NCBI GenBank assembly: GCA_041661685.1 | Contig: JBAZTY010000001.1 | Span: 128,691-192,690 of the forward strand | Direction of reading: 5' to 3' | DNA: 64,000 nt | From: Patescibacteria group bacterium | Lineage (GTDB): Bacteria; Patescibacteriota; Patescibacteriia; Patescibacteriales; UBA12465 | In this document: positions 12,043 to 64,000 of the stretch, one piece after another | Layout: each line of letters starts with the position of its first letter | Position numbering within the stretch: the first letter of the stretch is position 1 | Position numbers and translations under genes: made by a program | Notes under the pieces: model-generated | What the model saw: only the letters and a program-made list of their open reading frames with translations | Database searches by the model: none | What the model was told of the DNA's origin: nothing

Positions 12043-12063
12043 TCAAAGTCAAGTTTCTCAAAT

Positions 12064-12361: not shown

Positions 12362-12377
12362 TTTTTTGCTTTATTAT

Positions 12378-18201: not shown

Positions 18202-18233
18202 TTTAATTATTTAGAAATAGGTAAGTGAGTAAT

Positions 18234-18261
18234 AAAAGAGCCCCCGCAAGGGGGCTCTTTT
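18234..18261 (+). terminator. Strong intrinsic terminator after the surface-protein gene
   Basis: aaaagagccccc-GCAA-gggggctctttt. Confidence 0.9.
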
Positions 18262-18398
18262 AGTTGGGGAAAAGGGAATGGGTTTTTTGTATGGGCCTTC
18301 GGTGTCATTGAGCCGCTTTATTTAATATTTAATTTTCCTTTAACCCTATTTTGTTAGTATGGAACGATAGATAATTTAGCTATTGACTAATATCATAT

Positions 18399-18773: not shown

Positions 18774-19065
18774 AAAAAACATTCCCAAGGCAATCGATTT
18801 TGATGATGTATTGGCCAAAGAACTGAAAGATCCTGAGTTTAAGAAGCTTTTTGATGAATATGGCCGTCAGCTTGATATAGCTTATAATATTATTCAACTG
18901 CGTAAAGCCAAAAAAATGAGCCAGCTTGAATTGGCTCGAAAAATAGGCACGACTCAGAGTAATATTGCCAGGATTGAAGGCGGTCGCCAGAATTTTACTA
19001 TCAATCTTCTTCAGAAAGTAGCCGAAGCTTTGGATTCTAATCTAAAAGTAAGTTTTACCAATTAA
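18763..19065 (+). CDS. XRE-family helix-turn-helix antitoxin (HigA-like)
   Basis: LRKAKKMSQLELARKIGTTQSNIARIEGGRQNFTINLLQKVAEAL. Confidence 0.8.
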   Translation: MKNKKNIPKAIDFDDVLAKELKDPEFKKLFDEYGRQLDIAYNIIQLRKAKKMSQLELARKIGTTQSNIARIEGGRQNFTINLLQKVAEALDSNLKVSFTN

Positions 19066-21266: not shown

Positions 21267-21286
21267 ATCATAATAAGTTAGAATCA

Positions 21287-21316
21287 TAAAAAGCCGAGCG
21301 CTAGCTCGGCTTTTTT
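21287..21316 (+). terminator. Intrinsic terminator
   Basis: aaaaagccgagc-gcta-gctcggctttttt. Confidence 0.85.
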
Positions 21317-21511
21317 GGTTGAAAAAAATATTGAAAAATCAAGCAAGCCTGATCAGCTTCAGTGGTCCAGAGAATAATAAAAAAATATTTAAGATTAGAG
21401 AAATATTAAGGTTTCTAGATTTTATAAAAATTTTATTTTCTATTTTTAGAAGGAGCTTTTTATCTATTAATATTTGGCTGATATTAGCTATTTGTGCCGC
21501 TATTGCGTCAA

Positions 21512-21520
21512 TGTTATAAT
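21512..21520 (+). promoter_or_regulatory. Extended -10 promoter element TGtTATAAT
   Basis: tgttataat upstream of the KLD-repeat ORF. Its position argues that the ORF-track start at 21494 is too early. Confidence 0.4.
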
Positions 21521-21574
21521 ATTTTTTGCCTCGAAAAGTTAGGAGGTTTAAAAATAATTGCCAGAGTCAGGAGA

Positions 21575-21931
21575 ATGCCAGCGAACGGGCTTTCTTGGGA
21601 CGGGCCAAAAAATATGGCGTTAATGTTGGCGGAAATGACATTTCATGAGTTTGATATTTATTTTGATAAGAAGCTTGATAGCAAGCTTGATGAGAAATTA
21701 GATCAGAAGTTTGACGAGAAGCTGAAAGGCTTTTCCACGAAAGATGACCTTGACGAGGGGCTGAAAGGAGTAGAGGAAAGATTAAATACTAAGTTAGATA
21801 AGATTGAAAAGAAGCTTGAGTTTAAGATCGACCAGATCGACTATAAGCTAGACACCTCTTTTGATACTCTTAATGATAAGATAGATGCGAATATCTTCAT
21901 GCGCTCTAAGAAATTAGAATTCAGAGCTTGA
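21575..21931 (+). CDS. Small coiled-coil protein with KLD-x-K heptad-like repeats (start uncertain)
   Basis: DKKLDSKLDEKLDQKFDEKLKG...LNTKLDKIEKKLEFKIDQIDYKLDTSFDTLNDKID. The ATG at 21575 lies downstream of the predicted promoter; 21614 is an alternative. Confidence 0.4.
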   Translation: MPANGLSWDGPKNMALMLAEMTFHEFDIYFDKKLDSKLDEKLDQKFDEKLKGFSTKDDLDEGLKGVEERLNTKLDKIEKKLEFKIDQIDYKLDTSFDTLNDKIDANIFMRSKKLEFRA

Positions 21932-21980
21932 CGAAATCATATTTTTTATTATTTAGCCGTCGACATTCTATCGGCGGCTA

Positions 21981-21989
21981 TGTTATAAT
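21981..21989 (+). promoter_or_regulatory. Extended -10 promoter element TGtTATAAT
   Basis: tgttataat lies 30 nt upstream of the 22019 start. Confidence 0.45.
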
Positions 21990-22018
21990 AAAAGCGTTTT
22001 TATTAATATAAAATAAAT

Positions 22019-31156: not shown

Positions 31157-32275
31157 ATGAAAACCGCTTTAATCCATGATCATCTCGCCCAGGACGGCGG
31201 CGCCGAAAAAGTCTTGCAAGTTTTAGCCGATATGTTCCAGGACGCGCCGATATATACGCTTCTCTATGAAAAGAAGAATATCGACCGCTATGCCGGCCGC
31301 AAGGTTGCGGCCTCCATCATCCAGAAACTGCCCGGCGGCGTCAAGCATTATCAATGGTATCTGACCTTCATGCCGATTGCCGTGGAGTTTTTTGATTTAG
31401 GGGAATACGACTTGGTTATTTCCGATACCAGCTCTTTTGCTAAAGGCGTCATCACTAAGCCGGATTGCCTGCATATCTGCTACTGCCATACTCCGACCCG
31501 CTATCTCTGGAGCGATACTCATGAATATCTGAATGAGCTCAAATATAATAAATGGTTCAAGAAGATCATTTCTCTCGTTATCAGCCGCATCCGCCTCTGG
31601 GATCGCGCCGCCGCCGATCGGGTTGATTTTTTCATCGCTAATTCCGTTACTGTCCAAAAGCGCATCAGGAAATATTATCGCCGCGAATCCGTCGTTATTT
31701 ATCCGCCGGTAGAAACGGAGATATTTTCGATTATTAATCCGGTTGAATATGCGCAGAGCGAAAAATATTTCTTAGCCGGTTGCCGCTTGGCGCCATATAA
31801 GCGCATCGATATCGTTATCGAGGCTTTTAAGCTTTTAGGCGGAGATTATAAGTTGAAAATCTTCGGCGATGGCGTGGATATGAAGCGCTTGAAGAATATC
31901 GCTGGAGATAATCATAATATCGAATTTTTGGGCCGAGTGACCGAAGAAGAGAAGGCTCGCCTTTATCAAGGCGCTGAGGCTTTCATTAATCCGCAAGAAG
32001 AAGATTTTGGCATCACAGCCGTTGAATCGATGGCGAGCGGCCGGCCGGTAATCGCTTATCGCAAAGGCGGCGCGACCGAAACGATCATTGCAGGGAAGAC
32101 CGGTACATTTTTTGATATCCAGACTGCGGAAGAGCTAGAAAAGGTAATTAGGAATTTTAAATCAGGAACTTACGATTCAAAAGAGATACGCGCTCATGCT
32201 GAACAATTTTCTGTGGATAATTTTAAGCGCCAGATGAACGAGTTCATCGCGGCTCGTAAAAATGGAAAGCAATAG
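31157..32275 (+). CDS. Glycosyltransferase family 4
   Basis: MKTALIHDHLAQDGGAEKV start, and the E-x7-E region EEDFGITAVESMASGRPVIA. The ATG at 31157 is preferred over the GTG at 31139. Confidence 0.8.
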   Translation: MKTALIHDHLAQDGGAEKVLQVLADMFQDAPIYTLLYEKKNIDRYAGRKVAASIIQKLPGGVKHYQWYLTFMPIAVEFFDLGEYDLVISDTSSFAKGVITKPDCLHICYCHTPTRYLWSDTHEYLNELKYNKWFKKIISLVISRIRLWDRAAADRVDFFIANSVTVQKRIRKYYRRESVVIYPPVETEIFSIINPVEYAQSEKYFLAGCRLAPYKRIDIVIEAFKLLGGDYKLKIFGDGVDMKRLKNIAGDNHNIEFLGRVTEEEKARLYQGAEAFINPQEEDFGITAVESMASGRPVIAYRKGGATETIIAGKTGTFFDIQTAEELEKVIRNFKSGTYDSKEIRAHAEQFSVDNFKRQMNEFIAARKNGKQ

Positions 32276-32308
32276 GAAGATTTTTAATATAAAAAAAGTT
32301 TTTTGTAT

Positions 32309-32343
32309 AAAAAAAGGGGATAAGTTTCTCAATACTTATCCCC
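32309..32343 (-). terminator. Strong minus-strand-only intrinsic terminator with no minus-strand CDS to serve
   Basis: The minus strand reads GGGGATAAGT-attgagaa-ACTTATCCCC followed by TTTTTTT. On the plus strand the U-run is absent. Confidence 0.8.
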
Positions 32344-32654
32344 GACATGACGAAGGTTACGACACTGAAATCAGAATGATTTATCTCTAATTCTATGAGC
32401 TTTGGGCAATCGCATTGAGCTGCAGTATGTTTACCTTGCGTGCGACCGGCGGGCTATAAAATGATAGAGAATTAAGTTTTTATTACCAATGTCAGACCGC
32501 GTACCATGCCGAGACTAATTGATTAATGATTGTGCACCCGGGTGCAGAAATAATAAATTTTTCGCTAGTTATTACCCGAACAGAGGTTTCCTCTTATTGG
32601 TAGCTAACTCGAAATCATGGTTTGGTTTTGATGCCAAGCAGTTCAATCAGTCTT
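32344..32654 (-). ncRNA. Candidate unclassified non-coding transcript, bounded by a minus-strand promoter and terminator (about 345 nt including the terminator at 32309-32343)
   Basis: No ORF above about 12 codons on the minus strand. Internal hairpins include the tgcacccgggtgca palindrome and agagg-aaa-cctct. I recognised no family. Confidence 0.35.
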
Positions 32655-32660
32655 AACGAC

Positions 32661-32689
32661 ATCCTAGTCCTTGCCTTAATCATTGTCAA
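32661..32689 (-). promoter_or_regulatory. Minus-strand sigma-70-type promoter TTGACA-17 nt-TAGGAT
   Basis: The reverse complement of 32684-32689 is TTGACA and that of 32661-32666 is TAGGAT. The spacer is exactly 17 nt. Confidence 0.5.
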
Positions 32690-32724
32690 GAGTCTCAAAA
32701 AGTCTAAAATATCAGTAAAGTCTT

Positions 32725-33891
32725 ATGAAAATCGGGATAGATATCAGAGTTTTAATGGATAAGCATTATAGCGGCATATCAGAATATACCGCTAATTTAT
32801 TATCGGCTATATTGGCGCAGGATCAGACCAATGAATATAAGTTTTTTTATAATTCTTATCATGATTTAAACGGTCGCCTGGATAAATGGAATAACCATAA
32901 TTCTCAGGTCATCGGCCTCCACTATCCGAACAAGATTTTTAATTATTGCCTGCAGAAAATTTTCGGTTATCCGCGATTGGATAAGATTTTAGGCGGCGTC
33001 GATGTCTTCTGGTTGCCGCATTTTAATTTTACAAGTTTGAGCAGTTCGGAATCAGGACTAAAGAAAGTAATTACGGTCCACGATCTATCCTTCCTGCGCT
33101 ATCCGCAATTCTTCAGCGGCCGCAAGAATTTTTGGCATAAAGCTCTCGGCGTTAAGAAAATACTGAAGGAAGCGGATATGGTCATCGCGGTTTCGGAAAA
33201 TACGAAGAATGATATTATCGAGCTGGCGGGCATTGATGCTGCGAAAATCAGAGTGATTTATTCCGGCAACAACGTTATTAAGAAAGCCTGGCCGGAAGAT
33301 AAGATAAAAACTTGCCTAGATAAGCTAGACATCAGCGGCCCGTTCATCCTTTACGTCGGCAATATCGAACCGCGTAAGAATATCAGCGGCCTGATTAAGG
33401 CATATGATAAGCTACGGAATGAATTACGAAACAAAAGCGAGAATGTTGATCTAGTCTTAGCCGGTGCTCCGGGCTGGAAAGATTCTCAGATTCATAAAGA
33501 CTGGCAAGCCTCTACTTATAAGAACCAGATCAAGTTCCTCGGCTATATAAGCCAAGAAGAAAAAGAAATATTATATTCTCGAGCCGCTGTTTTTGTTTAT
33601 CCATCCTTCTATGAAGGTTTCGGCTTTCCGCCTTTAGAAGCGATGACTTATGGCGCGCCCGTCGTCTGTTCGAATGTTTCTAGTCTGTCGGAAATAGTCG
33701 CTGACGCGGCCATAATGATTAATCCAGAAAAACCTGAAGAGATAGCGAAAGCTATGAAGCTAATTTTGACCGACAAAGAGTTGCGCGCGCATTTAGTATC
33801 CTTAGGTTATGAACGCGCAAAAATATTTTCTTGGGATAAAGCCGCTAAAGAATATTTAGAATTATTTAAAGAATTGCATGAAAATAGATAA
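32725..33891 (+). CDS. Glycosyltransferase family 4
   Basis: YVGNIEPRKN, FVYPSFYEGFGFPPLEAMTYGAPVVCSN. Confidence 0.85.
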   Translation: MKIGIDIRVLMDKHYSGISEYTANLLSAILAQDQTNEYKFFYNSYHDLNGRLDKWNNHNSQVIGLHYPNKIFNYCLQKIFGYPRLDKILGGVDVFWLPHFNFTSLSSSESGLKKVITVHDLSFLRYPQFFSGRKNFWHKALGVKKILKEADMVIAVSENTKNDIIELAGIDAAKIRVIYSGNNVIKKAWPEDKIKTCLDKLDISGPFILYVGNIEPRKNISGLIKAYDKLRNELRNKSENVDLVLAGAPGWKDSQIHKDWQASTYKNQIKFLGYISQEEKEILYSRAAVFVYPSFYEGFGFPPLEAMTYGAPVVCSNVSSLSEIVADAAIMINPEKPEEIAKAMKLILTDKELRAHLVSLGYERAKIFSWDKAAKEYLELFKELHENR

Positions 33892-40400: not shown

Positions 40401-41085
40401 TTTCCGACCGTATTTAGTCAATTATATCATTCCCTTGGTCTCTCTCGGCGGCCATAAGAGCGACGACCGGGTAATTGTGGCCGGCATCATTTCTACCATT
40501 AAAAAGATCATCACTCGCAAAGGCGAGTCCATGCTCTTCGTAAAATTAGAAGACGCGACTAATTCGGTAGAGCTCTTAATATTTCCTCGCCTCTTGAAAG
40601 AGACGGCTTCTTTATGGGTCAGCGGGCAGGCAATCATCACCGACAGCAAAGTATCTGAGAAAGACCAAGAAGCTAAGGTGCTGGTTAATCGAGCCATGCC
40701 GCTTGACCCGCTCGCGCCGCAAGCCTCTATCGATGCCTTCAAGAAATTAATGATGGATAACCCGCCGAAGCCGAGTTATCGCGGAAAAGATGGAGGAGCT
40801 TCATTTCCGAAGAAATCAGCTGTTTCGTCGGCTGCTAAATCGTCGGCTAGCCAAGCCCCGGTTAAGCCCTTGCGCCTGATTTTCCTGCAAGAGCTGAAGG
40901 CCACCAATCTCGAGGATTTGCGCCGCCTCTTCGCCTCTTATCCGGGAGGAGATGAAGTTTATTTTCGGGTTACTGAAGCGGATAAGCCGAAGATAATCAA
41001 AACCGCTTTTAAAGTCGATAATAATAGCCAGCTTAACAACGAATTAAAAGAGCGTTTTCAAGAAATGCTCAAGATAGCTGAATAA
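37489..41085 (+). CDS. dnaE: DNA polymerase III alpha subunit
   Basis: 1198 aa. PHP domain start FVHLHNHSHYSLLDG, plus GRGSAAGSLVCY, PDIDMDF, HACGVLI, GLLKMDFLGL. Confidence 0.95.
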   Translation: MSFVHLHNHSHYSLLDGLTKLDEMVNFAKEQGSPAVAITDHGTMYGVIEFYQKAKKAGIKPILGVETYLAPHSRFDKNTREDGRGYHLLLLAKNLTGYKNLIKLVSHAHIEGFYYKPRIDWEILEKHHEGLIASTACLAGEIPRLIAADKLEEAKKRILEYNNLFGQGNFYLEIMDHPELGEDLSKVNKALIKFSRELNIPLVATNDVHYFKKEDAEAQDILLCLQNKKKKSDTDRMTMIGHGDYSMRPNAEMIAAFKDTPDAIENTLKIAEMCNVEIELGNIQLPHFEVPQGYDGSSYLKEWCEQGIIKRFPEANGEEMKKIKERLDYELSVIAKMGWPSYFLIVADFINWAKDNKIVVGPGRGSAAGSLVCYLTGITNLDPLKYDLLFERFLNPDRISMPDIDMDFADIRRGEVLKYVEEKYGQDHVAQIITFGTMAARAAVRDVGRVLDEPYEYCDKISKSIPMMMKLGEALKTVPELKEMYNTEPAAKKILDYAKRLEGVARHSSTHACGVLITKDPLTDNVPIQYASSADKSVISQYSLHPVEDLGLLKMDFLGLKNLTIIESALKIIKNTRGLELDIDKIPLDDAKAYKLFQDGETTGVFQFESSGMKRYLRELKPTVFEDIIAMVALYRPGPMEWIPDYIAGKHKTKKVIYLHPKLAPILEKTYGVAIYQEQVMQIARDLAGFTMGQADVLRKAMGKKIASLLAEQKEKFIEGCVKNGVYKELGEKVFSFIEPFAGYGFNRSHAACYALIGYQTAYLKAHWPVEFMAALLTSDYGDTDRVAIEIEECRNMGIKIMAPDINESFGTFTVVTSGTKENRAVTADDKSINTIRFGLKAIKNVGEHIVEELIRERKENGPYQDVFDILERVTDKDLNKKSLESLIKSGALDNFGERGQLLANIERMLSFNKELAKNKDNKQTSLFAEMPTSNLTHITLHPAAPAEQNEKLIWEKELLGLYVSEHPFNAFRPYLVNYIIPLVSLGGHKSDDRVIVAGIISTIKKIITRKGESMLFVKLEDATNSVELLIFPRLLKETASLWVSGQAIITDSKVSEKDQEAKVLVNRAMPLDPLAPQASIDAFKKLMMDNPPKPSYRGKDGGASFPKKSAVSSAAKSSASQAPVKPLRLIFLQELKATNLEDLRRLFASYPGGDEVYFRVTEADKPKIIKTAFKVDNNSQLNNELKERFQEMLKIAE

Positions 41086-41089
41086 TCAT

Positions 41090-41500
41090 ATGAAAATCGT
41101 TATCTGCGGCAGCATGATCTTCTCTAAGGAGATGATGGAAATAAAGTCAGGGCTGGAAAAGCTCGGGCATATCGTCATTCTCCCGCGCAACGCCGAACGT
41201 TATGCTAAGTCCCAGCTCGCACTTGAGACTAAAGCCGAAACGGTTAAAAATAAGATTAAGTATGACCTGATTAGAGCTTACTATCAGGAGATTGAAGCGT
41301 CTGACGGCGTACTCATTCTTAATTATGACAAGGGTGGCATTGATAATTATGTCGGCGGCAACTCCTTTTTAGAAGCTGGTTTTGCTCATATCTTGAATAA
41401 GAAGGTTTATTTCTTGTATGATATTCCGAAAATGCTCTATAGCGACGAGCTTAAAGCGCTGCAGCCGATAATCATCGACGGCGACTTGACGAAGATTTGA
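41090..41500 (+). CDS. Small Rossmann-like protein, possibly of the nucleoside 2-deoxyribosyltransferase-like superfamily
   Basis: MKIVICGSM start and GGNSFLEAGFAHILNKKVYFL resemble the NDT/DNPH1-type pattern. Weak, motif-level only. Starts 4 nt after the dnaE stop. Confidence 0.35.
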   Translation: MKIVICGSMIFSKEMMEIKSGLEKLGHIVILPRNAERYAKSQLALETKAETVKNKIKYDLIRAYYQEIEASDGVLILNYDKGGIDNYVGGNSFLEAGFAHILNKKVYFLYDIPKMLYSDELKALQPIIIDGDLTKI

Positions 41501-41529
41501 AAGATATAATTGTCGGCATTCTGATTTTC

Positions 41530-41538
41530 TGTTATAAT
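41530..41538 (+). promoter_or_regulatory. Extended -10 promoter element TGtTATAAT
   Basis: tgttataat lies 28 nt upstream of the 41566 start. Confidence 0.45.
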
Positions 41539-41565
41539 AGAGTTAATCAAAATTAAATTTGTTTT

Positions 41566-43062
41566 TTGTTTATGCCTAGAACTAAATCTTCCGTTTCCGC
41601 TGCCGCAGCCAAGAAGCCGCACGCTGAAAAGAAAACGGTCGCTAAAACTATTCATCCCAAGAAAAGGACTAAATCTATTTTGGTTGATGTTATTGAGGAT
41701 GAACCGATGATGGCGGCGAAATGGCCGGAGTATCAGGAGGAAAAGATTGAGATGCCGGAAAAAGAATCAAGACGCGAAAATTCTAAAAGCGAGGATGACG
41801 GAAGAGAGGAGATAGATAATCAGAAGAAATATTTTTCAGGCTTAGCCGAAAAACTTAAGGACTCTGATGACTCTAAAGAATATCCGATCAAGAAGGGCGG
41901 ATCCGGGAGAAAGAGAAGCGTCGGTTTGTATCGCCGTTTAGTAATAAAATTTATAATCCTAGTAGCTGTTTTAGCTGCGGTAGTTTTTTATTTTTCTTTT
42001 TCTAAATTGACGATCTCGCTTAATCTCAAGGGCGAGAATATTAGCGACACCTTGCTGTTGAAGATTGCGGATGCGAGCTTAGCCAAAGCGGCCTCCAGCT
42101 CGGCTTTTGCCATGCTTAACGATCCGCGCGAAGAGGTCGGCGGCGTTATCAAGGAGGTAAACGCTGACGTCACTAAGACTTATCCGGCAACGGGCGAAAC
42201 TTATCTAGGCGAAGCGATTATCGGACAGGTCCGGCTGATAAATAATTCTCCTAAGAATCAAGCGCTAGTCGCGACGACTCGATTACTGAGCGCGGATAAT
42301 AAATTATTTAGGATTAAAAATGCGGTCAATATTCCGGCCGGCGGGGAAGCTGCCGCCGAAATTTATGCTGATAAGCCGTCATCTGATTTGGCGATAGAGC
42401 CGACAACTTTTACTATTCCCGGGCTCTGGCTCGGCTTGCAGGATAAGATTTTTGCTAAGAGCGACGCCGCTTTCACTTTTTCCAAGCAAGTCAAGAAATA
42501 TATCACTGCTAGCGATCTTGAGGCGGCTTCTAAGGATATCAATGAAGCTTTAACGGCCGCGGCTAAGAAACAAGCCGAAGCAAATGGGGCGGGCGGCGAT
42601 TGGCTTTATCTGGCGAGCGGCCCGGCTGTGGTCAATATCGATGCTAAGGTCGGAGACAAGAAGGATGAATTCACGGCTAAAGCGAGCGGCAAGATTATCG
42701 CGGTTTCTTTCTCGAAAGAACAAGCGGCGAAATTAGCGGCGGCTAAATTCAACCTAATTATTCCTGATGATAAAGAGTTGAGCGATTTTAAGCCGGAAAA
42801 TATCGCCTATACTTTTGATAATTATGATCCGACGTCAGGAACGGCGACTATCAAGACCTCTTTTAACGGTACGATGATACTGAAGAGCGATTCCGAAGTT
42901 ATTGATCCGTCTCAATTAGTTAACCTTACTGCCGATCAGATCGGGACCTATCTGAGAAGCCAGAACGAGGTTAAGGATTATGAATTGAAGTTCTCCCCGT
43001 CTTTCATTAAGAAAGCTCCGAGTTTGGTCGACAGGATTAAGGTGGAAGTGAAGACGGAATAA
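41566..43062 (+). CDS. Hypothetical membrane-anchored protein (498 aa) with a charged disordered N-terminus
   Basis: K/E-rich N-terminal ~120 aa, one TM helix (FIILVAVLAAVVFYFSF), then a large exterior domain. No recognised motif. Confidence 0.5.
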   Translation: MFMPRTKSSVSAAAAKKPHAEKKTVAKTIHPKKRTKSILVDVIEDEPMMAAKWPEYQEEKIEMPEKESRRENSKSEDDGREEIDNQKKYFSGLAEKLKDSDDSKEYPIKKGGSGRKRSVGLYRRLVIKFIILVAVLAAVVFYFSFSKLTISLNLKGENISDTLLLKIADASLAKAASSSAFAMLNDPREEVGGVIKEVNADVTKTYPATGETYLGEAIIGQVRLINNSPKNQALVATTRLLSADNKLFRIKNAVNIPAGGEAAAEIYADKPSSDLAIEPTTFTIPGLWLGLQDKIFAKSDAAFTFSKQVKKYITASDLEAASKDINEALTAAAKKQAEANGAGGDWLYLASGPAVVNIDAKVGDKKDEFTAKASGKIIAVSFSKEQAAKLAAAKFNLIIPDDKELSDFKPENIAYTFDNYDPTSGTATIKTSFNGTMILKSDSEVIDPSQLVNLTADQIGTYLRSQNEVKDYELKFSPSFIKKAPSLVDRIKVEVKTE

Positions 43063-56746: not shown

Positions 56747-57187
56747 ATGCGCCTTTGGAGCTTATCGCCGCAATATCTAGACCGCCAGGGTCTTTTGGCG
56801 GTTTGGCGAGAGGGTCTCTTGGCTAAGAAGGTCTTAGAGGGGAAGACAAGCGGGTATAAGAGTCATCCGCAGCTAACTAGATTTAAAGAGCAGGAGAAGC
56901 CGGTAGATCATATTAAGGCTTATTTACTGGGGATATATCAAGAAGCGGCTGATCGGGGCTATAAGTTTAATCGGGAAAAAGCCGGCCTCTTGAAAAATAA
57001 ATTAAAAGATATTAAAGTAAGCAGTGGCCAGATAGAGTACGAATTTGCGCATCTTCTGAAGAAGCTGGCTAAGCGCGATAGGAGCCGCTATAATGAACTG
57101 AAAAGCTTAGTTAAACCGGTTTCTCATCCTCTATTTAAGATAAGGAAGGGCGGAATAGAGCTTTGGGAAAAACAGCTAGGAAAATAA
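56747..57187 (+). CDS. Pyrimidine-dimer DNA glycosylase (T4 endonuclease V-like family)
   Basis: MRLWSLSPQYLDRQGLLAVWREGLLAKKVL...GYKSHPQLTRF matches the family N-terminus. Confidence 0.7.
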   Translation: MRLWSLSPQYLDRQGLLAVWREGLLAKKVLEGKTSGYKSHPQLTRFKEQEKPVDHIKAYLLGIYQEAADRGYKFNREKAGLLKNKLKDIKVSSGQIEYEFAHLLKKLAKRDRSRYNELKSLVKPVSHPLFKIRKGGIELWEKQLGK

Positions 57188-57196
57188 AATAATCAT

Positions 57197-57267
57197 TCGG
57201 GGATCGTCTAACGGTAGGACAACAGGTTCTGGTCCTGTTTATTGGGGTTCGAATCCCTATCCCCGAG
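57197..57267 (+). tRNA. tRNA-Gln (anticodon CUG)
   Basis: TCGGGGA-TC-GTCTAACGGTAGGAC-A-ACAGG-TTCTGGT-CCTGT-TTAT-TGGGG-TTCGAAT-CCCTA-TCCCCGA-G. U1-A72 as in bacterial tRNA-Gln. G37 is unusual. Confidence 0.85.
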
Positions 57268-58818
57268 CATCGATGAACTAACAGGTTGTAAAAGGCCTGT
57301 TTTTTCATAATCTTCGCCAAATTTTGCTAGTCCGAAACTACTATTTACTCGAGGCATCCATTCTGCTAAAAATCCGCCACCTAAAGTGTATTTTACCCTT
57401 ATTCTATCGCCCTTTAATTCAAAGTCCGAAAATAATTGTGATAAAACTAAACGCTTAGTTTCAACACTCTCTTCGGTGTTATCAATTAGATCCGGAGCTT
57501 CACTGGCCAAGCGATGAAGTTTGATGCCTTTTTCAAAGTCACTTATTTGATTAGTCGGGCTAAGTTGTTTAATTTTTTTCTCTAAATCTATCTTTTCACA
57601 GTTAAATTCATTATATTTTTTAGTATAAAAATCCTCAGTAATTTTGCCGTCCAGTTTGTCGTTATAGATTAGGTTTAATCTATTCTCAATCCGCTTTAAA
57701 CTCTCCTCTAAAGCCTGTTTTTGGCTTTCCAGAAGGTTATTATTGGTCGGCTCTACTTCTTTCATTGTGTTTTCTAACCAATCAATTAAGTGCGGTGTAG
57801 CGGCTTGCATCTTTTTCAAGTAAGCCATTAACTGATCAATAATATCTTGTTCTCTAACTCTGGTATTTTGCGAACAAGGGCGGTAATGATTACAGGTGCC
57901 ATAAATATGTCCCTTTCTTTCGCTCCAACTAATAATTCCGCCACATTCAGCGCAGCGAAGATTACCCTTAAAGATAAAGAGATGTTTTTTAAATTGAGCG
58001 GCCGATAATTTGCGCTTAATTCTAGTCTGCACTTTATCAAATAAGCTATTATCAACTATCGGTTCGTGATTACCAGGATAGATTTTTTTATTCCAGATAA
58101 TTTGTCCGGTATAAAAGGGATTAGTCAGCATACTGTGTAAAGTGTTTTTAGCGAGCATTTTTCCCGATGGTGTTTTTAGTCCTTGATCAAACATTACTTC
58201 GGCTAAAAATTTTAGAGAATAATTACCGCTAGCGTATAGCTCAAAAGCTTCTCTAATTAATGGCGCAATTTTTTCATCAATAATTTGTGTTTTATGTCCT
58301 TTGTCGCCAATTGTTTTATAACCTAAACACGGACGTTGCGGCATCCAACCGGATTCAAGTTTAGCTTTCTGTCCTTTCTTTACCTCCTCGCTTAAATTAT
58401 TAGTATAAAATCTGGCAATGGCTACTTTCATATCCCAGACTAAATTTTCATGAGCACGAGTATTACGGTTAACAACAAAATTTTCTTTAACAAAATGAAT
58501 TTCGTGGTTTTCGTTTTCATTAATCCAGTCGCTTATTATAGCTGCATCTCTAAGATTGCGAGTTAAGCGGTCTATTTTTTCAACCAGAAGAATATTAAAG
58601 CCGTTCTTTTTAACATAAACTAACATTTCAGAAAAAGTCTTCCTGATCAGCTTGCCGCTGGCGGATTCTGAAATCTTATAAATCTTGGCGATGCCAAATT
58701 CATTGCGAAGAGCATAATCTTTTAGCAGCTTTTCTTGAGCTTCTAGAGAATAGCCCCTATCCTCCTGTTCTTTAGAGGAAACTCGGCAATAAATTATACA
58801 TTGTTTAGCGTTTTTCAT
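57208..58818 (-). CDS. Large serine recombinase (integrase); the 3' end of the ORF runs antisense through tRNA-Gln
   Basis: CIIYCRVSSKEQEDRGYSLEAQ catalytic-Ser motif, VEKIDRLTRN, a recombinase domain, Zn-ribbon CAECGG...CNHY, and a coiled-coil. The Met at 58818 (MKNAKQC) is preferred over 58857. Confidence 0.85.
   Translation of the reverse strand: MKNAKQCIIYCRVSSKEQEDRGYSLEAQEKLLKDYALRNEFGIAKIYKISESASGKLIRKTFSEMLVYVKKNGFNILLVEKIDRLTRNLRDAAIISDWINENENHEIHFVKENFVVNRNTRAHENLVWDMKVAIARFYTNNLSEEVKKGQKAKLESGWMPQRPCLGYKTIGDKGHKTQIIDEKIAPLIREAFELYASGNYSLKFLAEVMFDQGLKTPSGKMLAKNTLHSMLTNPFYTGQIIWNKKIYPGNHEPIVDNSLFDKVQTRIKRKLSAAQFKKHLFIFKGNLRCAECGGIISWSERKGHIYGTCNHYRPCSQNTRVREQDIIDQLMAYLKKMQAATPHLIDWLENTMKEVEPTNNNLLESQKQALEESLKRIENRLNLIYNDKLDGKITEDFYTKKYNEFNCEKIDLEKKIKQLSPTNQISDFEKGIKLHRLASEAPDLIDNTEESVETKRLVLSQLFSDFELKGDRIRVKYTLGGGFLAEWMPRVNSSFGLAKFGEDYEKTGLLQPVSSSMLGDRDSNPNKQDQNLLSYR
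57281..57306 (+). terminator. Weak intrinsic terminator after tRNA-Gln
   Basis: acagg ... cctgt stem, extendable by G-U pairs, followed by tttttt. Confidence 0.45.
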
Positions 58819-58876
58819 ATTTTTGATAACTAAAAGGGAGCGGCTCCGTGCACACAAACCAATATCACTAAAAGCA

Positions 58877-58918
58877 ATACTTGTCTGTCAGAACCGCCCC
58901 CTTTTAGGGGACAAGTAT
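58877..58918. repeat. Interrupted inverted repeat upstream of the recombinase gene
   Basis: atacttgt ... acaagtat outer arms with an inner cccc-tttta-gggg. Confidence 0.4.
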
Positions 58919-58935
58919 AAAAAAAGCCTTTAGTA

Positions 58936-59118
58936 TTATGTTTGATTTGTGTGCTTCTTCATATTAGCAAAATGTCTAGATAATTTCAACTTTTTTAAAC
59001 CGGAAAAATAGGTGACTAATTGGTGGCCAAGTTCAAACGCCTCGGAATCCGTCAGATCTCGTCCGTAATCATCTTTGATGATTATCTTCAGTTGTTCCAG
59101 TCTGAACTTGCTAATCAT
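58936..59118 (-). CDS. Hypothetical small protein (60 aa)
   Basis: Co-oriented ORF within the island. No motif. Confidence 0.35.
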   Translation of the reverse strand: MISKFRLEQLKIIIKDDYGRDLTDSEAFELGHQLVTYFSGLKKLKLSRHFANMKKHTNQT

Positions 59119-59155
59119 AAATAATATTTATCGTAAAAAGTTTGTGCAGGACTTT

Positions 59156-59335
59156 TTACTCAATTTCTTTAAGGGCTCTTTCATAAGAGGCTAATTTTCT
59201 CTTAAGCATTTCGGTATCGCTTGAATGCTCAAAACTTTCTCCGGCCTCTAAAGCTTTTTTCATTCCGTTAATTTTTCCGACCAGCCAGGCGTGATAGCCG
59301 TAAGTGCCGAAATTAATTTTTTCTAAGTTTGCCAT
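59156..59335 (-). CDS. Hypothetical small protein (59 aa; not in the supplied ORF track)
   Basis: My translation of the minus strand is MANLEKINFGTYGYHAWLVGKINGMKKALEAGESFEHSSDTEMLKRKLASYERALKEIE. Its start lies 5 nt downstream of the Rep stop. Confidence 0.35.
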   Translation of the reverse strand: MANLEKINFGTYGYHAWLVGKINGMKKALEAGESFEHSSDTEMLKRKLASYERALKEIE

Positions 59336-59340
59336 ATTGT

Positions 59341-60180
59341 TTAATTGCTAGAGGGGAGTTGATAAATATTTACTGTCACCTCGCCTCGATATTTATTCTT
59401 AAATTCTTTCTCATAAACTTTTTCTAGAGGAGGGGAGTAATTAGCCATCACCTCTTCGCTCTCCAGACCTTTAAACTCTTGCGGTCGGTTTAAATTGCGA
59501 GAATAGAAGAATTTCTTTTTACCGAAATATTTTTTATTAAACGATTCTTTGCTTAAATACTTGGAGACATAGAGGCCGACATTATTGATTGATTTTATTT
59601 TATTGATTTTTACGAAACCGTGCCGCCAAATTTTCTCAATTTTTTTAGTCTCAACTTTTTGATTCAGGAGCAAATGATAGTGAATGGCTCCGCCGAATTC
59701 TTTTTTGATATTGGTGCGGAAATAGTAATCGCCTTGAAATTCGGGAACGGCCAGATATTTAATGCCTAGGAAATTATATTTCAGCCTTTGCATAAAAGTC
59801 ATAAACAGATAATTGCATTTTTCAAATTCGGTAATTTCTTTTTTATTGGTAAATTTATTTTCATCGAAGGTCAGAGTCAGGAAAGTAATAAAATCGGGAT
59901 TGCTATTTACTAGGCGCATAATGTTCATTCTCGTTCGCCTTAAGGCGCCGCTTCTCATTTCTGTTTGTTCTTCCTGGGGTTTATTCTTCCGCTTCTTTTT
60001 GCGAACCCGTTTCTTGCCGGTAGTTATTTCGTTTTGATAAATATATTCCTCAATGAATTGTCCGGAGATAATTATTTTGGTTTTATAAGACCCTTTAGCT
60101 CGTTTTTCTTTAGCTTTTTTAATGTATTCTAAATACTTTAATCGTCCACGTTCTAATCTATCTGTATCTTTGTTATCCAT
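59341..60180 (-). CDS. HUH-superfamily rolling-circle replication initiator (Rep)
   Basis: All three RCR motifs in order: FITFLTLTF (I), AIHYHLLLN (II, HUH) and GLYVSKYLSKE (III, catalytic Tyr). Highly basic N-terminus. Confidence 0.7.
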   Translation of the reverse strand: MDNKDTDRLERGRLKYLEYIKKAKEKRAKGSYKTKIIISGQFIEEYIYQNEITTGKKRVRKKKRKNKPQEEQTEMRSGALRRTRMNIMRLVNSNPDFITFLTLTFDENKFTNKKEITEFEKCNYLFMTFMQRLKYNFLGIKYLAVPEFQGDYYFRTNIKKEFGGAIHYHLLLNQKVETKKIEKIWRHGFVKINKIKSINNVGLYVSKYLSKESFNKKYFGKKKFFYSRNLNRPQEFKGLESEEVMANYSPPLEKVYEKEFKNKYRGEVTVNIYQLPSSN

Positions 60181-60247
60181 ATCACTTAAATCTTGTTGAG
60201 TGTGCTTATAGTCAAGTTAATAAGCAGATGTGAAGCGTTATATCTTG

Positions 60248-60316
60248 CCGCCTCTGTTTTTCTTTTTCGGCTCCCCCACGGGGTAGCCGCCGAAAAAGAA
60301 AAAAACAGAGAGACGG
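60248..60316. repeat. Long hairpin (about 28 bp) upstream of the Rep gene; candidate replication origin or terminator
   Basis: ctctgtttttctttttcggc ... gccgaaaaagaaaaa(aa)cagag arms enclosing cccc-cac-gggg. Confidence 0.7.
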
Positions 60317-60486
60317 ATAATTTTTGACGTTTAAGCATATGAGCAGAATTATGAATTAGTGAGGAGCTCGACCTTTTGGATTGTCTCCTAACCTATATGG
60401 ACGAAATTTCGCAGGCAATAAAAAAATCCCCTAACTTTAGATAAGTTAAGGGATTAAATTAGCAGGGAAATAGCGAGGAAATTTCT

Positions 60487-61560
60487 TTAGTAGTTGGGCA
60501 GATATTCTTTAGGCGGTAGTTTTTTACTGTCTGATTCGGAGATATGACGGTCTTGCCAGGATTCTCTGAATTCCGGTGGCGAGACAAGCTTAATTTTTAT
60601 TTGATATTCTTCATTTTTTTCATTGTAAACTATGGGGTCGTCTTTTAGTCCGAAGTGGGCTTTTAACCTTTTTGATAAGTCCTGTTTATTCTTCTTGAAT
60701 AAGTCTTTCTTAGCTTTACTTCCGGCATACATATTCATTTTAATACGGCCGTTTTGAGTCGAGAATAAGATAAGGGTATTCCAGCTTTTAATATAGGTCG
60801 CTTTTTGCGAGGAATCCTGACGAGTATCGGCAAAGCCCAGCTTATCATAACTGGAGTCGGATTCTTGGCCGTCTATTACCAAGGTCACATCGTAATTATT
60901 TTTAAACCTGATTTCAACGCTTTCCCAACTATCAGTTATTGGTTCTTTATATATTTTACTTTCAGTATCGGCGAATTCCCCAACCATAATAGAAGCTTCC
61001 AGCCAGCTCATAACGCTCTTATTAAAATCTAGCAGAAATCTCTTGTGGAGTTTCGGTTTTAGGACTATATCTAACTTAAATTTTTTTAATTCTTCCTCCA
61101 TCCCTTTTATTTCTTTGACCTGTCCGTCATAGTCATTCTCTATTAAAGCCTTTTTTAAAGGCGCTAAACTGCCAACCTTAAGAGATTTTTGATAAGCAGG
61201 CGCATAAAGACTAGCACCACCAATCATTTCTTTAAACAAACTGTAGTAAACCCAGTTATATGATTTAGTTTTACTGTTTTTTATTTTCCCTAAATTTTGT
61301 CCGAATAAGGCGCCGTCATGATCGTTATCTTTAACTTCTTTGCGGAGTAAAATCATAAATCCGCTAAATATCTTCTCCGATTCAATAATATCTAAATATT
61401 TTTTGATAATAGTAAAAAGCTCGGGCAGCTTGTCGGAAATAGACAAGGTTTCAGTGAGCTTTATGTTTTTTCGGGAAAAAATAACCTTGAAATAAGTCTT
61501 ACGAAATTCAGTAATAAGGCTTTCAAGGGTATTTTTTAATTGTTTGGCATCTTCAGTCAT
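60487..61560 (-). CDS. Hypothetical protein (357 aa), island cargo of unknown function
   Basis: Long AT-rich ORF co-oriented with Rep. No motif I can recognise. Confidence 0.55.
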   Translation of the reverse strand: MTEDAKQLKNTLESLITEFRKTYFKVIFSRKNIKLTETLSISDKLPELFTIIKKYLDIIESEKIFSGFMILLRKEVKDNDHDGALFGQNLGKIKNSKTKSYNWVYYSLFKEMIGGASLYAPAYQKSLKVGSLAPLKKALIENDYDGQVKEIKGMEEELKKFKLDIVLKPKLHKRFLLDFNKSVMSWLEASIMVGEFADTESKIYKEPITDSWESVEIRFKNNYDVTLVIDGQESDSSYDKLGFADTRQDSSQKATYIKSWNTLILFSTQNGRIKMNMYAGSKAKKDLFKKNKQDLSKRLKAHFGLKDDPIVYNEKNEEYQIKIKLVSPPEFRESWQDRHISESDSKKLPPKEYLPNY

Positions 61561-61789
61561 AGTGAGCTTATTTTATAACGTAAAGTTTTAATAGTCAAAA
61601 GCAGAGAAACGGGGTGGATTGTCTATCTGTGGCTTCTCATTTTAGCGTCAGCTTATCGCCTCTCAAGGTAGTGCCTGTGGCCTCCACTTTGACTGTCGCA
61701 AGCCATCAGACGCTGTCTCATTTCGTGCCGATAGATAATCTAAGGCGACGTTATCCGGCAATTTAATATCAGTCGCTACATTTAATTTT

Positions 61790-62083
61790 ATGACTATATC
61801 AGTCAAATCAAATTGGACAGGTTCAGAGAGCACCTCTGATCTTGTTAGAAAGCAGATTGCCGAGCGTTGGGGCGAAGATGAAGCTAAACGCTATAATCCG
61901 TTTGTTAATTGCTTCACCTTTAACGGTTGGCTTAAAAACGGCTATGTCGTTCGTAAGGACGAAAAGGCTATCCGGTCTTTCATTATCGTTGAGAAGAAAG
62001 ATAAGAAAACTGGAGCGGTGATAGAAAAGCGTCCTAAGACGATTTACCTTTTCTACGAGAAACAGGTTGAAGCGCAAGCTTAA
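61790..62083 (+). CDS. Small protein with weak resemblance to the ArdC N-terminal ssDNA-binding domain
   Basis: FTFNGWLKNGYVVRKDEKAI resembles the (L)TF.QA..LGG.VRKGEK motif. Low-confidence, motif-level only. Confidence 0.3.
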   Translation: MTISVKSNWTGSESTSDLVRKQIAERWGEDEAKRYNPFVNCFTFNGWLKNGYVVRKDEKAIRSFIIVEKKDKKTGAVIEKRPKTIYLFYEKQVEAQA

Positions 62084-62090
62084 CAAATTC

Positions 62091-62126
62091 AGGAGCTGAC
62101 TCTTAAAGGGTTGGCTCCTTTTTTTG
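62091..62126 (+). terminator. Intrinsic terminator after the ArdC-N-like ORF
   Basis: ggagc ... gctcc stem followed by ttttttt. Confidence 0.55.
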
Positions 62127-62193
62127 TATAGGCAATAGCCATTTGATTTTATTGTAGTTAAAAATAAAAGAGCTCAGTTTAGACTGAACTTTT

Positions 62194-62670
62194 TTATTGT
62201 AAAGTTTTTATTCTTTCTGTTTCGCTAAGTAGTAAAGCGGCCAGCTTAATATTAAAATTCATGATTAATGTAAGTTCCTTTTCACTATAGCCAACAAGGA
62301 TCTCCGGCATCTTTTTGATAAACAAATTGCGTGCCAGATTTAAATGACTCGGGTTGTCAACTATTAATCTAACGATAATTTTTCTTCTATCACTCTTATG
62401 GGCTTCACGTCTGATGAAATTAGCTTTTTCCAACCTATCAATTGCGGCAGTCATGGCACCAGTCGTGAGATTGGTTATTTTTGCCAATTCACCGGCACTA
62501 GCAAAACGTACCTCACTTAAATAATCCAAACATTTTATATCAGTAGGATGTATCCCAGTTGTTTCTGAAATTGACTGCACAAACAATATTGCCGCCCTAG
62601 TTTCTTTCTGAAAAGAGTTTATTAAATTATATATTGTTTTCTGATTAGCAATAGTCTTTTTAGATTCCAT
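62194..62670 (-). CDS. MarR-family transcriptional regulator
   Basis: Winged-helix pattern: AGELAKITNLTTGAMTAAIDRLEKANFIRREAHKSDRRKIIVRL. Confidence 0.8.
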   Translation of the reverse strand: MESKKTIANQKTIYNLINSFQKETRAAILFVQSISETTGIHPTDIKCLDYLSEVRFASAGELAKITNLTTGAMTAAIDRLEKANFIRREAHKSDRRKIIVRLIVDNPSHLNLARNLFIKKMPEILVGYSEKELTLIMNFNIKLAALLLSETERIKTLQ

Positions 62671-62836
62671 AGTTTTAAATAATAATTTGCATATATTACA
62701 AATTTACTTTATACTAAAGTTACTTAATAGTCAAGATATATAAATCTTTAAAGTGAATTTAATATACATTATTTTTATTGCACACAATCTTAAAAATAAT
62801 ATTTCTATAGTTTATTTCAAATAATAACATTAATTT

Positions 62837-64000
62837 ATGAATAAAAAGCATCTATTAATTACGCTTGGAGGGATTGTTGTAGTCGGCGGTATTATCACCA
62901 GCTTTTTTGTGCGCCAATCAAATTTATCACCAGCCAATTTAGTAAGTGTTCAAAAGGGAGATATAATTCAAGAGATTTCAGCTACAGGAAACGTTGAATC
63001 ACCATCAGATATTAATTTACGATTTAAAAATAGCGGAAAATTAACATCTCTAAAGGTAAAGATAGGGGACGTTGTTAGCGCTGGGCAGATTTTAGCGGAG
63101 CTGGATTCTAGTCAATTAGATGCCGATATAATGGATATGCAGTCCGGAATAAATTTACAAAAAGCTAAATTGAATCAATTGCGAGCTGGCAACTCACAGG
63201 AAAATATAATGTTATCAGAGACAAGTGTCGCTCATGCTAAATCTTCATATGACTCTGCTATTGAGAATTTAGATAAAGTTAAAAATGTAACTGCTATAAA
63301 TATTGCACAAGCGCAAAAAAACTATGACGATATTATAGGAGATACGCCATTTCATGTCACAAACTATGAGCAGGCAGTTAAAACGGCACAAAGTTTTTTG
63401 GAAAACACCATTAAAACTAGTGATCAAAATGTAAAAAATAAAAAAGCTTCTGCTTTAACTGTTGCTGAAGACAAGCTTGGGGTTGCTAGTATAGCTCTTG
63501 ATAATATCCAAAGGCTTTTAGATGATAGTGCTGCTGACAATCTTTTGAGCGTCCTTAATACAAATTACCTATATTTAACAAAAACTAATCTAGATCTAGC
63601 AAAAACTGAATTAACTTTAGCTAAAAATAAATTAATCATTGCTAAAACGAGTCAGGAAGATGATGATATTAACCTAGCTTTTGACTCATCAAATACTGCT
63701 TTAAATCTTAGCTATACCGCTATAACCTACTGTTACCAGGTTTTAGAAAATACTATTACTTCTAGTTCATTTCCTCAGAGCTCCCTTGACTCATATAAAA
63801 GTGCAATAAGTTCACAGCGAACCCTTCTCGGTTCTGCGGTCAGCGCAACACAAATTTCGCAACAAAATATTACCGATGCTTTATTAAGTAAGGAAACAAA
63901 TACAAATAGTGCACAAAAAGCATTAGAACAGTCTAAGGTAACTCTAGAAAACATGAAAATAAACTATTTAAATGCTTTAGAATTGAGCCATTCAAATGGT
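62837..64000 (+). CDS. HlyD/MacA-type periplasmic adaptor (membrane-fusion) protein, 3' end outside the window; not in the supplied ORF track
   Basis: The ATG at 62837 opens a frame that runs to base 64000. TM anchor, then VQKGDIIQEISATGNVESPSDINLRFKNSGKLTSLKVKIGDVVSAGQILAELD (lipoyl/beta-barrel start), then a long coiled-coil. Confidence 0.6.
   Translation, partial: MNKKHLLITLGGIVVVGGIITSFFVRQSNLSPANLVSVQKGDIIQEISATGNVESPSDINLRFKNSGKLTSLKVKIGDVVSAGQILAELDSSQLDADIMDMQSGINLQKAKLNQLRAGNSQENIMLSETSVAHAKSSYDSAIENLDKVKNVTAINIAQAQKNYDDIIGDTPFHVTNYEQAVKTAQSFLENTIKTSDQNVKNKKASALTVAEDKLGVASIALDNIQRLLDDSAADNLLSVLNTNYLYLTKTNLDLAKTELTLAKNKLIIAKTSQEDDDINLAFDSSNTALNLSYTAITYCYQVLENTITSSSFPQSSLDSYKSAISSQRTLLGSAVSATQISQQNITDALLSKETNTNSAQKALEQSKVTLENMKINYLNALELSHSNG

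Follow-up and report, generated by a model that had tools for sequence, protein, structure and literature searches.

What is the AT-rich DNA that begins beside a tRNA-Gln gene near the right end of this 64,000-nt stretch of a Patescibacteria contig (JBAZTY010000001.1; hereafter the window), and where does it end? The initial annotation proposed an integrated rolling-circle replicon with a serine integrase beside tRNA-Gln. Our analysis agrees with this proposal: the left junction falls exactly at the tRNA 3′ end, and the motifs of both the recombinase and the replication initiator (Rep) are intact. We consider it highly probable that one integrative element of 14,562 bp is located directly 3′ of tRNA-Gln(CTG) and that the window carries its left 6.7 kb.

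The GC content of window positions 1–57196 was 44.4%. From 57001 to 64000, every 1-kb bin had 31.7–37.7% GC, as expected from the AT-rich zone described earlier from about 57.3 kb to the window end, and the drop fell at most about 250 nt from the tRNA-Gln 3′ end. The range of 45–58% GC first given for the lysS flank was too high at the top, since 43.7–47.1% per kb was measured there (49–57 kb). For the DNA right of position 64000 we used L002, a stretch of a 202-kb contig from another assembly that was found, together with L003, by an exact look-up of the MarR protein. L002 is 100% identical to window 59908–64000 and runs on for a further 8.7 kb. Coordinates called window-equivalent are 72671 minus the L002 position. 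In this extension GC stayed at about 35% up to about 71.5 kb (window-equivalent) and was 42% beyond. The AT-rich block is about 14.5 kb long, not 6.7 kb, and ends at about 71.8 kb window-equivalent. The right boundary, correctly judged at the outset to lie outside the window, was located 7.8 kb past the window end, where the composition switch (about 71.8 kb) and a second GAGC junction were both found. The element has 34.9% GC, compared with 44.4% in the host region.

Both ends of the insert were read by comparison with relatives. The tRNA-Gln(CTG) gene (57197–57268, + strand; ARAGORN), which is the integration target, is intact and identical in the element-free loci L004 and L045. Synteny by blastn with L004 (85% nucleotide identity) and L045 (82%) runs from 45 kb and ends exactly at 57268/9. 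On the other side, the DNA directly 3′ of tRNA-Gln in L005 matches window-equivalent 71826–72046 at 86%, and L045 has the same terminator immediately 3′ of its tRNA. When the window sequence ending in ...CCCCGAGC (to 57268) was joined to the sequence after ...AAGCGAGC (from 71831), the product aligned with L045 and L005. The insert comprises the 14,562 bp between two GAGC tetranucleotides, at window 57265–57268 and window-equivalent 71827–71830, and contains 17 genes in total according to the Pfam scan and the L002 gene list.

The large serine recombinase is encoded on the − strand by an open reading frame (ORF) at 57208–58857 that opens with TTG at 58857; a Met at 58818 gives 536 amino acids (aa). 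It matched the Pfam families Resolvase (PF00239, 2.1e-25) and Recombinase (PF07508, 6e-19). Zn_ribbon_recom (PF13408) was matched at 5.5e-5 and 23.9 bits, just below the 25.3-bit cut-off. In PHROG, integrase family 95 was matched at 7.5e-85 with residues 12–504 aligned. The catalytic motif reads YCRVSS, and the TP901-1 integrase catalytic domain was matched at 1.3e-8. Over its final 61 nt the ORF is antisense to the 3′ part of tRNA-Gln, so the core of the attachment (att) site lies within the 3′ end of the integrase gene. The same overlap between integrase and tRNA was present in all relatives, including the tRNA-Glu and tRNA-Ser families.

The host (B) arm of attL spans 57247–57268 (+ strand), in which GTTCGAATC (57247–57255) is the T-loop and GAGC occupies 57265–57268. 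The element (P′) arm, ATCGATGAACTAACAGGTTGTAAAAGGCCTGTTTTTTC (57269–57306, + strand), stands next to GAGC in more than 25 loci. Within it, a hairpin with a T-run at 57281–57305 replaces the tRNA's own terminator, and the opposite strand of this segment encodes the integrase tail. The right end of the element consists of about 55 bp, AAAWWTTATYTATTATTAGCCAYCC AAGTTCGRAAGCNGTCCCTCCAAGCGAGCA, at window-equivalent 71777–71830 and is followed by a host-type terminator at window-equivalent 71840–71861. This right end resembles the T-loop and acceptor strand of a tRNA, except that GTTCGRAA lies 28 nt from GAGC, compared with 23 nt in the tRNA. GAGC, with some scattered bases, is the sole sequence common to attL, attR and the empty sites.

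The two spacings can be compared with the structural model of a Listeria phage serine integrase, in which a 9-bp zinc-ribbon-domain motif lies at positions 16–24 in attP half-sites and at 11–19 in attB half-sites (PMC3783163). The motif registers of attP and attB thus differ by 5 bp in that model (PMC3783163). With GA as the centre, the left half-sites of our element fall into the same registers: GTTCGRAAG is at 16–24 in the element arm and GTTCGAATC is at 11–19 in the tRNA arm. No symmetric motif was found by eye in the right half-sites (P′ and B′).

The empty site of L045 reads CCCCGAGC|TAA, attR reads GCGAGC|TAA and attL reads CCCCGAGC|ATCG. These sequences place the exchange within or left of GAGC, and we infer a crossover at the GA dinucleotide 57265–57266. 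The attL junction is ...CCCTATCCCCGAGC|ATCGATGAACTAAC and the attR junction is ...CCCTCCAAGCGAGC|TAATAAAATAAAAC. The predicted attP is ...CCCTCCAAGCGAGC|ATCGATGAACTAAC, and the predicted attB is ...CCCTATCCCCGAGC|TAATAAAATAAAAC. Attachment junctions of the attP-like kind, with the mimic arm joined to the integrase end, were seen in L086, L088/L122, L092 and L104. In the tRNA-Glu family, a pattern search for a tRNA-mimic right end found none.

Integration alters the C-terminal 20 or so residues of the integrase, both here (57208–57268) and in the matching region of all relatives. The integrated form ends in ...MLGDRDSNPNKQDQNLLSYR, and the predicted circular form ends in ...MLAWRDGFRTWMANNK. 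Some mycobacteriophages have integration-dependent immunity, a parallel that raises the question of a regulatory role for the tail swap here.

An exact 18-nt repeat, AATCCCTATCCCCGAGCA (57252–57269 and window-equivalent 72027–72044), was also considered as the att duplication. Its second copy is the 3′ end of X, a GC-rich structured module of about 170 nt past the tRNA terminator (window-equivalent 71868–72044; L002 627–803, − strand). We rejected the repeat because X also follows tRNA-Gln in the island-free L005, and because L002 and L003 part directly past the mimic arm, 200 nt short of the second copy. Other copies of X are present in L005 (12026–12196 and 12240–12404), L107 (149–321), L013 (2822–2996), L042 (15822–15997) and L125 (11438–11598 and 5704–5864). 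The module folds into a closing stem with three hairpins, and 22 of the 47 predicted pairs show compensatory changes among 5 copies; no matching family was found in Rfam. The last 18 nt of X copy the 3′ end of the tRNA that it follows, tRNA-Gln here and tRNA-Glu in L125, while the interior is nearly identical. In L125 a Rep/integrase element is joined to the 3′ end of X and not to the tRNA. X could serve as a spare landing pad, or it could be a mini-element that hitch-hikes.

The genes listed in the initial annotation are all present, namely the serine recombinase, two small ORFs, an HUH Rep, a 357-aa orphan, an ArdC-N-like ORF, a MarR regulator and a membrane-fusion protein. As was also stated there, no capsid, portal, terminase, tail or conjugation gene was seen, and no such family was matched. 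The conserved core is 4.9 kb long and consists of int, orf60, orf59, rep, orf357 and, on the opposite strand, the ArdC-like gene.

The HUH rolling-circle Rep (59341–60180, − strand) matched PF23343 at 1.6e-14 and PHROG 3584/3419. It carries motif I, FLTLTF, at 59866–59883 (aa 100), the HUH motif HYHLLL at 59665–59682 (aa 167) and YVSKY at 59557–59571 (aa 204). Its identity to the Reps of 1.5–7 kb plasmids from Bacillota and Fusobacteria is 28–38% over 60–87% of the length, and that to microvirus-type Reps is about 31%. Two hairpins lie upstream of rep, both on the − strand. The smaller, GCTTAT/ATAAGC with AACTTGAC in the loop (60203–60226; DNA fold), is invariant in 19 loci and overlaps the likely rep promoter (TTGACT). 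We propose it as a candidate double-strand origin, as AACTTGAC appears to resemble the nick sequence CTTGATA of phiX174 and pC194. The longer hairpin (60248–60316), also conserved in the 19 loci, has a stem of about 28 bp with compensatory changes between loci. Its DNA fold has −27.2 kcal/mol (z = −6.0), and 0 of 200 shuffles were as stable. This hairpin is a candidate single-strand origin or Rep-binding site.

Of the two small conserved ORFs, orf60 (58936–59118, − strand) is syntenic in about 35 loci at 60–97% aa identity. The other, orf59 (59156–59335, − strand), lies directly downstream of rep and is kept even with Rep relatives that are about 70% identical. Neither had a Pfam or PHROG match. 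Our guess is that orf60 is a regulator or directionality factor, and by their position either of the two ORFs may be the directionality factor.

The family-specific 357-aa protein orf357 (60487–61560, − strand) has 49 homologue clusters. None of these is named beyond "hypothetical protein", and the few labelled with an organism are metagenome-assembled genomes of Patescibacteria. No match was found in Pfam, PHROG or PDB. Its AlphaFold2 model (pLDDT 74) is mostly alpha-helical with a small C-terminal beta domain, and the best Foldseek hit to a solved structure had E = 0.37, with no likeness to a capsid or other protein. The 97-aa protein (61790–62083, + strand) matched the ArdC N domain family PF08401 at E = 0.0027 in this copy, and 40 of 40 aligned homologues also matched it, the best at 5.5e-7. 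Its AlphaFold2 model has a pLDDT of 91, and its top three PDB matches are ArdC of R388 (probability 0.98–0.99, E 0.009–0.05, TM-score 0.37–0.48). ArdC N domains bind single-stranded DNA (ssDNA). Judged from its homologues and its model, the 97-aa protein is ArdC-N-like, and it is putatively ssDNA-binding. The core ends at 62092–62134 (+ strand) with a terminator hairpin, T7 and then GTATAGGCA (TTTTTTTGTATAGRCA); beyond this point the loci carry unrelated cargo.

Beyond the core, the cargo of this element is 9.6 kb long and includes MarR, a MacAB-like exporter and a class II ribonucleotide reductase (RNR), among others. The MarR-family regulator (62194–62670, − strand) matched Pfam at 1.2e-12. 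The HlyD/YknX-type membrane-fusion protein (62837–64000+, + strand) is cut by the window end and has 627 aa in L002. The next genes in L002 encode an FtsX permease, an ABC ATPase, a 186-aa ORF, the class II RNR and a PduO-type adenosyltransferase. The last cargo genes encode a cytochrome b5-like protein, DUF488 and a cupin, and are followed by the element end of about 55 bp. We propose that the cargo is a MarR-controlled MacAB-like exporter and a class II RNR with its cofactor enzyme. Cargo in other loci includes type I restriction-modification (at least 7 loci), a Fic protein and a class V aminotransferase cluster. Across loci the cargo measures 0.9–9.6 kb and the whole element about 7.6–14.6 kb. 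The right-end sequence was found past different cargo in L092, L099, L107, L109, L111, L116 and L138.

Taken together, these parts suggest how the element would work; we infer its excision, its rolling-circle replication, the coating of its ssDNA and its transfer between cells. The large serine recombinase would join attP, made of the right-end mimic and the integrase 3′ end, with attB, made of the tRNA 3′ end and its trailer. Crossover would take place at the GA dinucleotide, two bases past the acceptor stem. An exchange there would therefore leave the mature tRNA untouched, and the element would bring a new terminator. Excision would probably need a directionality factor, perhaps orf59 or orf60. 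The excised circle would replicate by the rolling-circle route, with Rep nicking the AACTTGAC hairpin loop 40 nt upstream of rep, and its single strand would be covered by the ArdC-N-like protein. Exchangeable cargo occupies the slot that separates core and right end.

To place the host, we compared LysS, whose gene adjoins tRNA-Gln 0.5 kb to its left. By LysS matches in a species-representative genome set, the host is a Falkowbacteria-type Patescibacterium, which agrees with the initial assignment to the candidate phyla radiation (CPR). The closest LysS proteins are those of L045 (95% aa identity), L004 (94%) and L005 (86%). L004, L005, L007, L010 and others are titled "uncultured Gammaproteobacteria bacterium", whereas their LysS and gene order match Falkowbacteria/Patescibacteria; such titles are probably placeholders or taxonomic mislabels. 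Within the 44% GC host region, GC also dips to 34–40% at 12001–13000, 18001–19000, 21001–22000, 32001–33000 and 41001–42000, around short ORFs or intergenic gaps.

Searched with Rep, the JGI metagenome contigs yielded 58 loci with Rep relatives. About 40 loci have the same syntenic core, in the order int-orf60-orf59-rep-orf357-ardc97, at 80–97% aa identity. In every locus with a visible flank, the integrase 3′ end abuts tRNA-Gln, either CTG (next to lysS) or TTG (in another neighbourhood). Relatives with a Rep about 72% identical abut tRNA-Leu or tRNA-Ser, and distant relatives (Rep 42–49% and Int 27–30% identical) abut tRNA-Glu. In the distant relatives at other tRNAs, the integrase ORF again runs into the tRNA.

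The distribution of the element does not follow that of its hosts. The two closest relatives, L045 and L004 (LysS 94–95%), lack the element, so the block is not syntenic in all close relatives. More distant hosts (LysS 62–82%) carry the integrase/Rep core at 80–97% identity. For example, L098 has a LysS of 62% but Int of 91–97%, Rep of 93% and an ArdC-like protein of 96%, and L012 has a LysS of 82% but Int of 88.5%. L087 and L088 share 99.9% identity along 12.9 kb, and the point at which they separate is exactly GAGCA. L003 matches the element at 97% identity with the same cargo; its host flank differs from that of L002 immediately after the right end. The recombinase motifs show no decay. We conclude from these sequences that the presence/absence pattern is that of a recently moving element, and the mobility proposed in the initial annotation is upheld. 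The insertion is recent because relatives at 94–95% LysS identity are without the element.

The tRNA-Gln site also affects assemblies. Among 80 species representatives (L004–L083), 57 lysS loci have this tRNA-Gln; 20 of their contigs end at most 300 nt after it, and 18 further contigs end within 9 kb. This site is a general assembly breakpoint and a hotspot in this clade. The end of the L001 contig (57224) was considered as an alternative junction and set aside as uninformative: it falls within the conserved body of the tRNA, 44 nt short of the crossover, and a graph branch between species that co-occur is the likelier explanation.

Copies of the tRNA-mimic right end occur 1.7–4.5 kb downstream of tRNA-Gln, with no integrase or Rep between, in L008 (13746), L009 (about 14016 and 15105), L021 (15966), L035 (14504 and 16134) and L042 (15263). 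They resemble remnants or satellites without an integrase that have piled up at the hotspot. At 1–3822, just past the core of its first element, L085 carries a second, distantly related pair of a Rep (39%; rep-like 375–989) and a serine recombinase (24%; integrase-like 1319–2773). The aminotransferase cargo gene, which has its full length in L098 and L109, is apparently cut short by this pair, a nested or tandem insertion of a different family member. In L088 (12934–20825) the integrase end is joined to the tRNA-mimic arm, where the otherwise 99.9% identical L087 has tRNA-Gln and lysS. Beyond the mimic arm, L088 has a type III restriction-modification pair, two unknown ORFs and a LexA-like repressor, as read from the sequences and not from a scan of a family library.

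Several observations weigh against a single 14,562-bp mobile element. For this genome neither an excised circle nor a read of the empty site was seen, and the DNA past 64 kb comes from another assembly (L002) and not from the window's own record. The right half-sites lack a recognisable symmetric motif. The element genes include no transfer machinery, and an IMG/VR scan for Rep gave no relative. An IMG/VR scan for the attP junction pattern also gave none, with a pattern so strict that it missed junctions already known. The junctions between mimic arm and integrase end could be tandem arrays and not circles, and at least that in L104 is chromosomal. Finally, conservation stops very sharply at 62134, with GCA as the last letters just as at the tRNA junction, which also fits a 4.9-kb element ending there. 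That last point leads to an unlikely but concrete alternative of two tandem elements. A 4.87-kb integrase/Rep element (57269–62134, ending in ...TTTTTTTGTATAGGCA) would have been inserted between the tRNA and an older, integrase-less 9.7-kb island, running from MarR to cupin, that owns the tRNA-mimic end. In about 20 loci core conservation does stop at one nucleotide, with unrelated sequence beyond and the same final GCA. Moreover, integrase-less islands with the same tRNA mimic exist downstream of tRNA-Gln in L008, L009, L021, L035 and L042, and tandem arrays exist in L085 and L099. However, position 62134 has no tRNA-mimic arm or GTTCGAA, hence no P arm for a serine integrase. In 8 of 8 loci with the far side visible, the order is core, cargo and mimic arm, and the junctions of mimic arm and integrase end recur, as expected if both ends form attP. 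L002 and L003 carry the core with this cargo at 97–100% identity in different host flanks, and the MarR cargo was found only on contigs that also bear the core. GTATAGGCA at 62134 is therefore kept as the right end of an element only in this minor alternative. The initial annotation had left open whether the MarR/HlyD part is cargo or a second island; as core and cargo occur together in L002 and L003 despite different flanks, it is most likely cargo of the same element.

The single-element reading was weighed against three more explanations. One is that a once-mobile element is now fixed and inactive in this lineage and kept for its cargo (exporter and RNR). Nothing found here points directly to excision, a housekeeping-type enzyme (class II RNR with adenosyltransferase) is among the cargo, and the whole block is common to L002 and L003. 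But all core ORFs are intact with their catalytic motifs, as are both att arms; L003 has the same element in a different flank, and relatives at 94–95% LysS identity are without it. Fixation is thus rather improbable. It is still less probable that the insert is an integrated ssDNA virus or satellite with a microvirus/inovirus-type Rep, in which orf357 or a cargo gene builds or hijacks a particle. PF23343 is the ORF2/G2P family of plectro- and inoviruses, identity to Microviridae-type Reps is about 31%, in phiRSM inoviruses, too, a serine recombinase acts at the 3′ end of a tRNA gene, and orf357 is without an assigned function. Against a virus, Pfam and PHROG gave no capsid, coat, lysis or morphogenesis/Zot-type assembly ATPase family in core or cargo, which is negative evidence only. 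The orf357 model is mainly helical without a solved-structure match, the small ORFs are not hydrophobic and coat-like, and Rep is at least as close to small plasmid Reps. IMG/VR has no relative, and a cargo size of 0.9–9.6 kb is unlike a fixed capsid. The last explanation, an assembly chimera joining a 44% GC genome to a 35% GC genome through a shared repeat, has almost no probability. The GC step is abrupt, and other assemblies do break in this region (L001 at 57224, L002 at 59908 and L003 at 60111), but a multi-variant mobile element would itself cause contig breaks. The DNA past the right end of the block sits directly 3′ of tRNA-Gln in L005 and L045, with GC back to 42%. The two ends of the AT-rich block therefore fall at a single point of the chromosome, and this rules out a chimera. 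The same lysS-tRNA-Gln-integrase join is also found in independent assemblies of other species (L012, L085, L087 and L098).

CPR/Patescibacteria make up a large share of bacterial diversity and have tiny genomes, few described mobile elements and few genetic tools. The comparison gives a base-precise anatomy of a common element family, covering its ends and att arms, the candidate origin, the core genes and the slot for cargo. Among the genes that travel on these elements are those for restriction-modification systems, an exporter and even an RNR. The integrase is a natural serine integrase that reads a tRNA 3′ end, with a tRNA-mimic attP arm in the register of the structural model, and the att sequences are directly testable in vitro. 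Tentatively, we put forward four points as one joint reading, which we regard as possible. These elements would form a branch of an undescribed class of mobile elements that extends across the phylum of the Patescibacteria. The class would encode its large serine integrase across its own att site and target tRNA 3′ ends (Gln, Glu, Leu and Ser) by means of a tRNA-mimicking attP arm with a 5-bp register shift. Its members would be a main vehicle that moves defence and metabolic genes, including the RNR, between distant ultra-small bacteria. The same system would include X, at which an element is joined in L125, either as a dedicated spare landing pad or as a mini-element that hitch-hikes. If this is true, the integrase/att pair is a ready site-specific integration tool for CPR bacteria.

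How does the element compare with known systems? Tycheposons of Prochlorococcus are 10–20 kb long and carry cargo, a site-specific integrase and their own replication genes (10.1101/2020.12.28.424599). They lie at the proximal end of tRNA-associated islands with tandem insertions, degraded remnants and partial tRNAs, and their cargo serves defence and niche adaptation (10.1101/2020.12.28.424599). In 910 of 937, tyrosine recombinases split and restore the tRNA, and replication is by primases, helicases or polymerases (10.1101/2020.12.28.424599). Our element is similar in that it lies beside a full-length tRNA with cargo, a replication gene, tandem copies and remnants. In contrast to tycheposons, it has a large serine recombinase that would act just past the tRNA, a 4-bp shared core with no tRNA duplication at the ends, and an HUH rolling-circle Rep; the host phylum also differs. 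The actinomycete integrative and conjugative elements (ICEs) pSAM2 and SLP1 are plasmid-like; they insert at tRNA genes, can excise, and rely on an HUH Rep for rolling-circle replication. Their integrases are tyrosine enzymes whose attP and attB share long identity, and their transfer depends on an FtsK-like Tra protein; our element has neither feature. More generally, unlike ICEs, integrative mobilizable elements (IMEs) and actinomycete ICEs, it has no relaxase/origin of transfer (oriT), type IV secretion, coupling protein or Tra among its 17 genes.

With the large serine integrases of phages (A118/LI, TP901-1, phiC31 and Bxb1), the recombinase shares the resolvase, recombinase and zinc-ribbon architecture and minimal attP/attB identity (PMC3783163). 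It differs in that the targets of its family are tRNA 3′ ends (Gln, with Glu, Leu and Ser in distant relatives), its attP arm imitates the tRNA, its att core lies inside the integrase ORF and its right half-sites are not recognisably symmetric. To our knowledge, the target sites of the known large serine integrases lie in protein-coding genes or are intergenic. For a serine recombinase that acts at a tRNA 3′ end, the phiRSM inoviruses are the closest precedent. These filamentous phages of Ralstonia are rolling-circle replicons that integrate at the 3′ end of tRNA-Ser by a serine recombinase (PMC4471427). Their enzyme is of the small resolvase/invertase type and acts at a 13-bp identical core, and each is a complete inovirus with coat and assembly genes (PMC4471427).

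Small rolling-circle plasmids with a related Rep (Geobacillus NC_022994 Rep5, Brevibacillus NC_004938 and Fusobacterium NC_003091) differ from the element in that they are 1.5–7 kb, free, and without an integrase or cargo slot. IMEs and SCCmec-type islands have a serine recombinase at one end, target the 3′ end of a conserved gene, carry exchangeable cargo and form tandem arrays. IMEs have a relaxase and oriT and need conjugative helpers, and SCCmec targets rlmH and has no such replication initiator. Our literature searches, which were not exhaustive, found no description of such elements in CPR bacteria, and the family is apparently widespread in Patescibacteria and undescribed. The element works like a tycheposon or a pSAM2-type element and is a member of neither group. 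The kind of element, tycheposon-like or pSAM2-like, is known; the form with a large serine recombinase and an HUH Rep is apparently undescribed.

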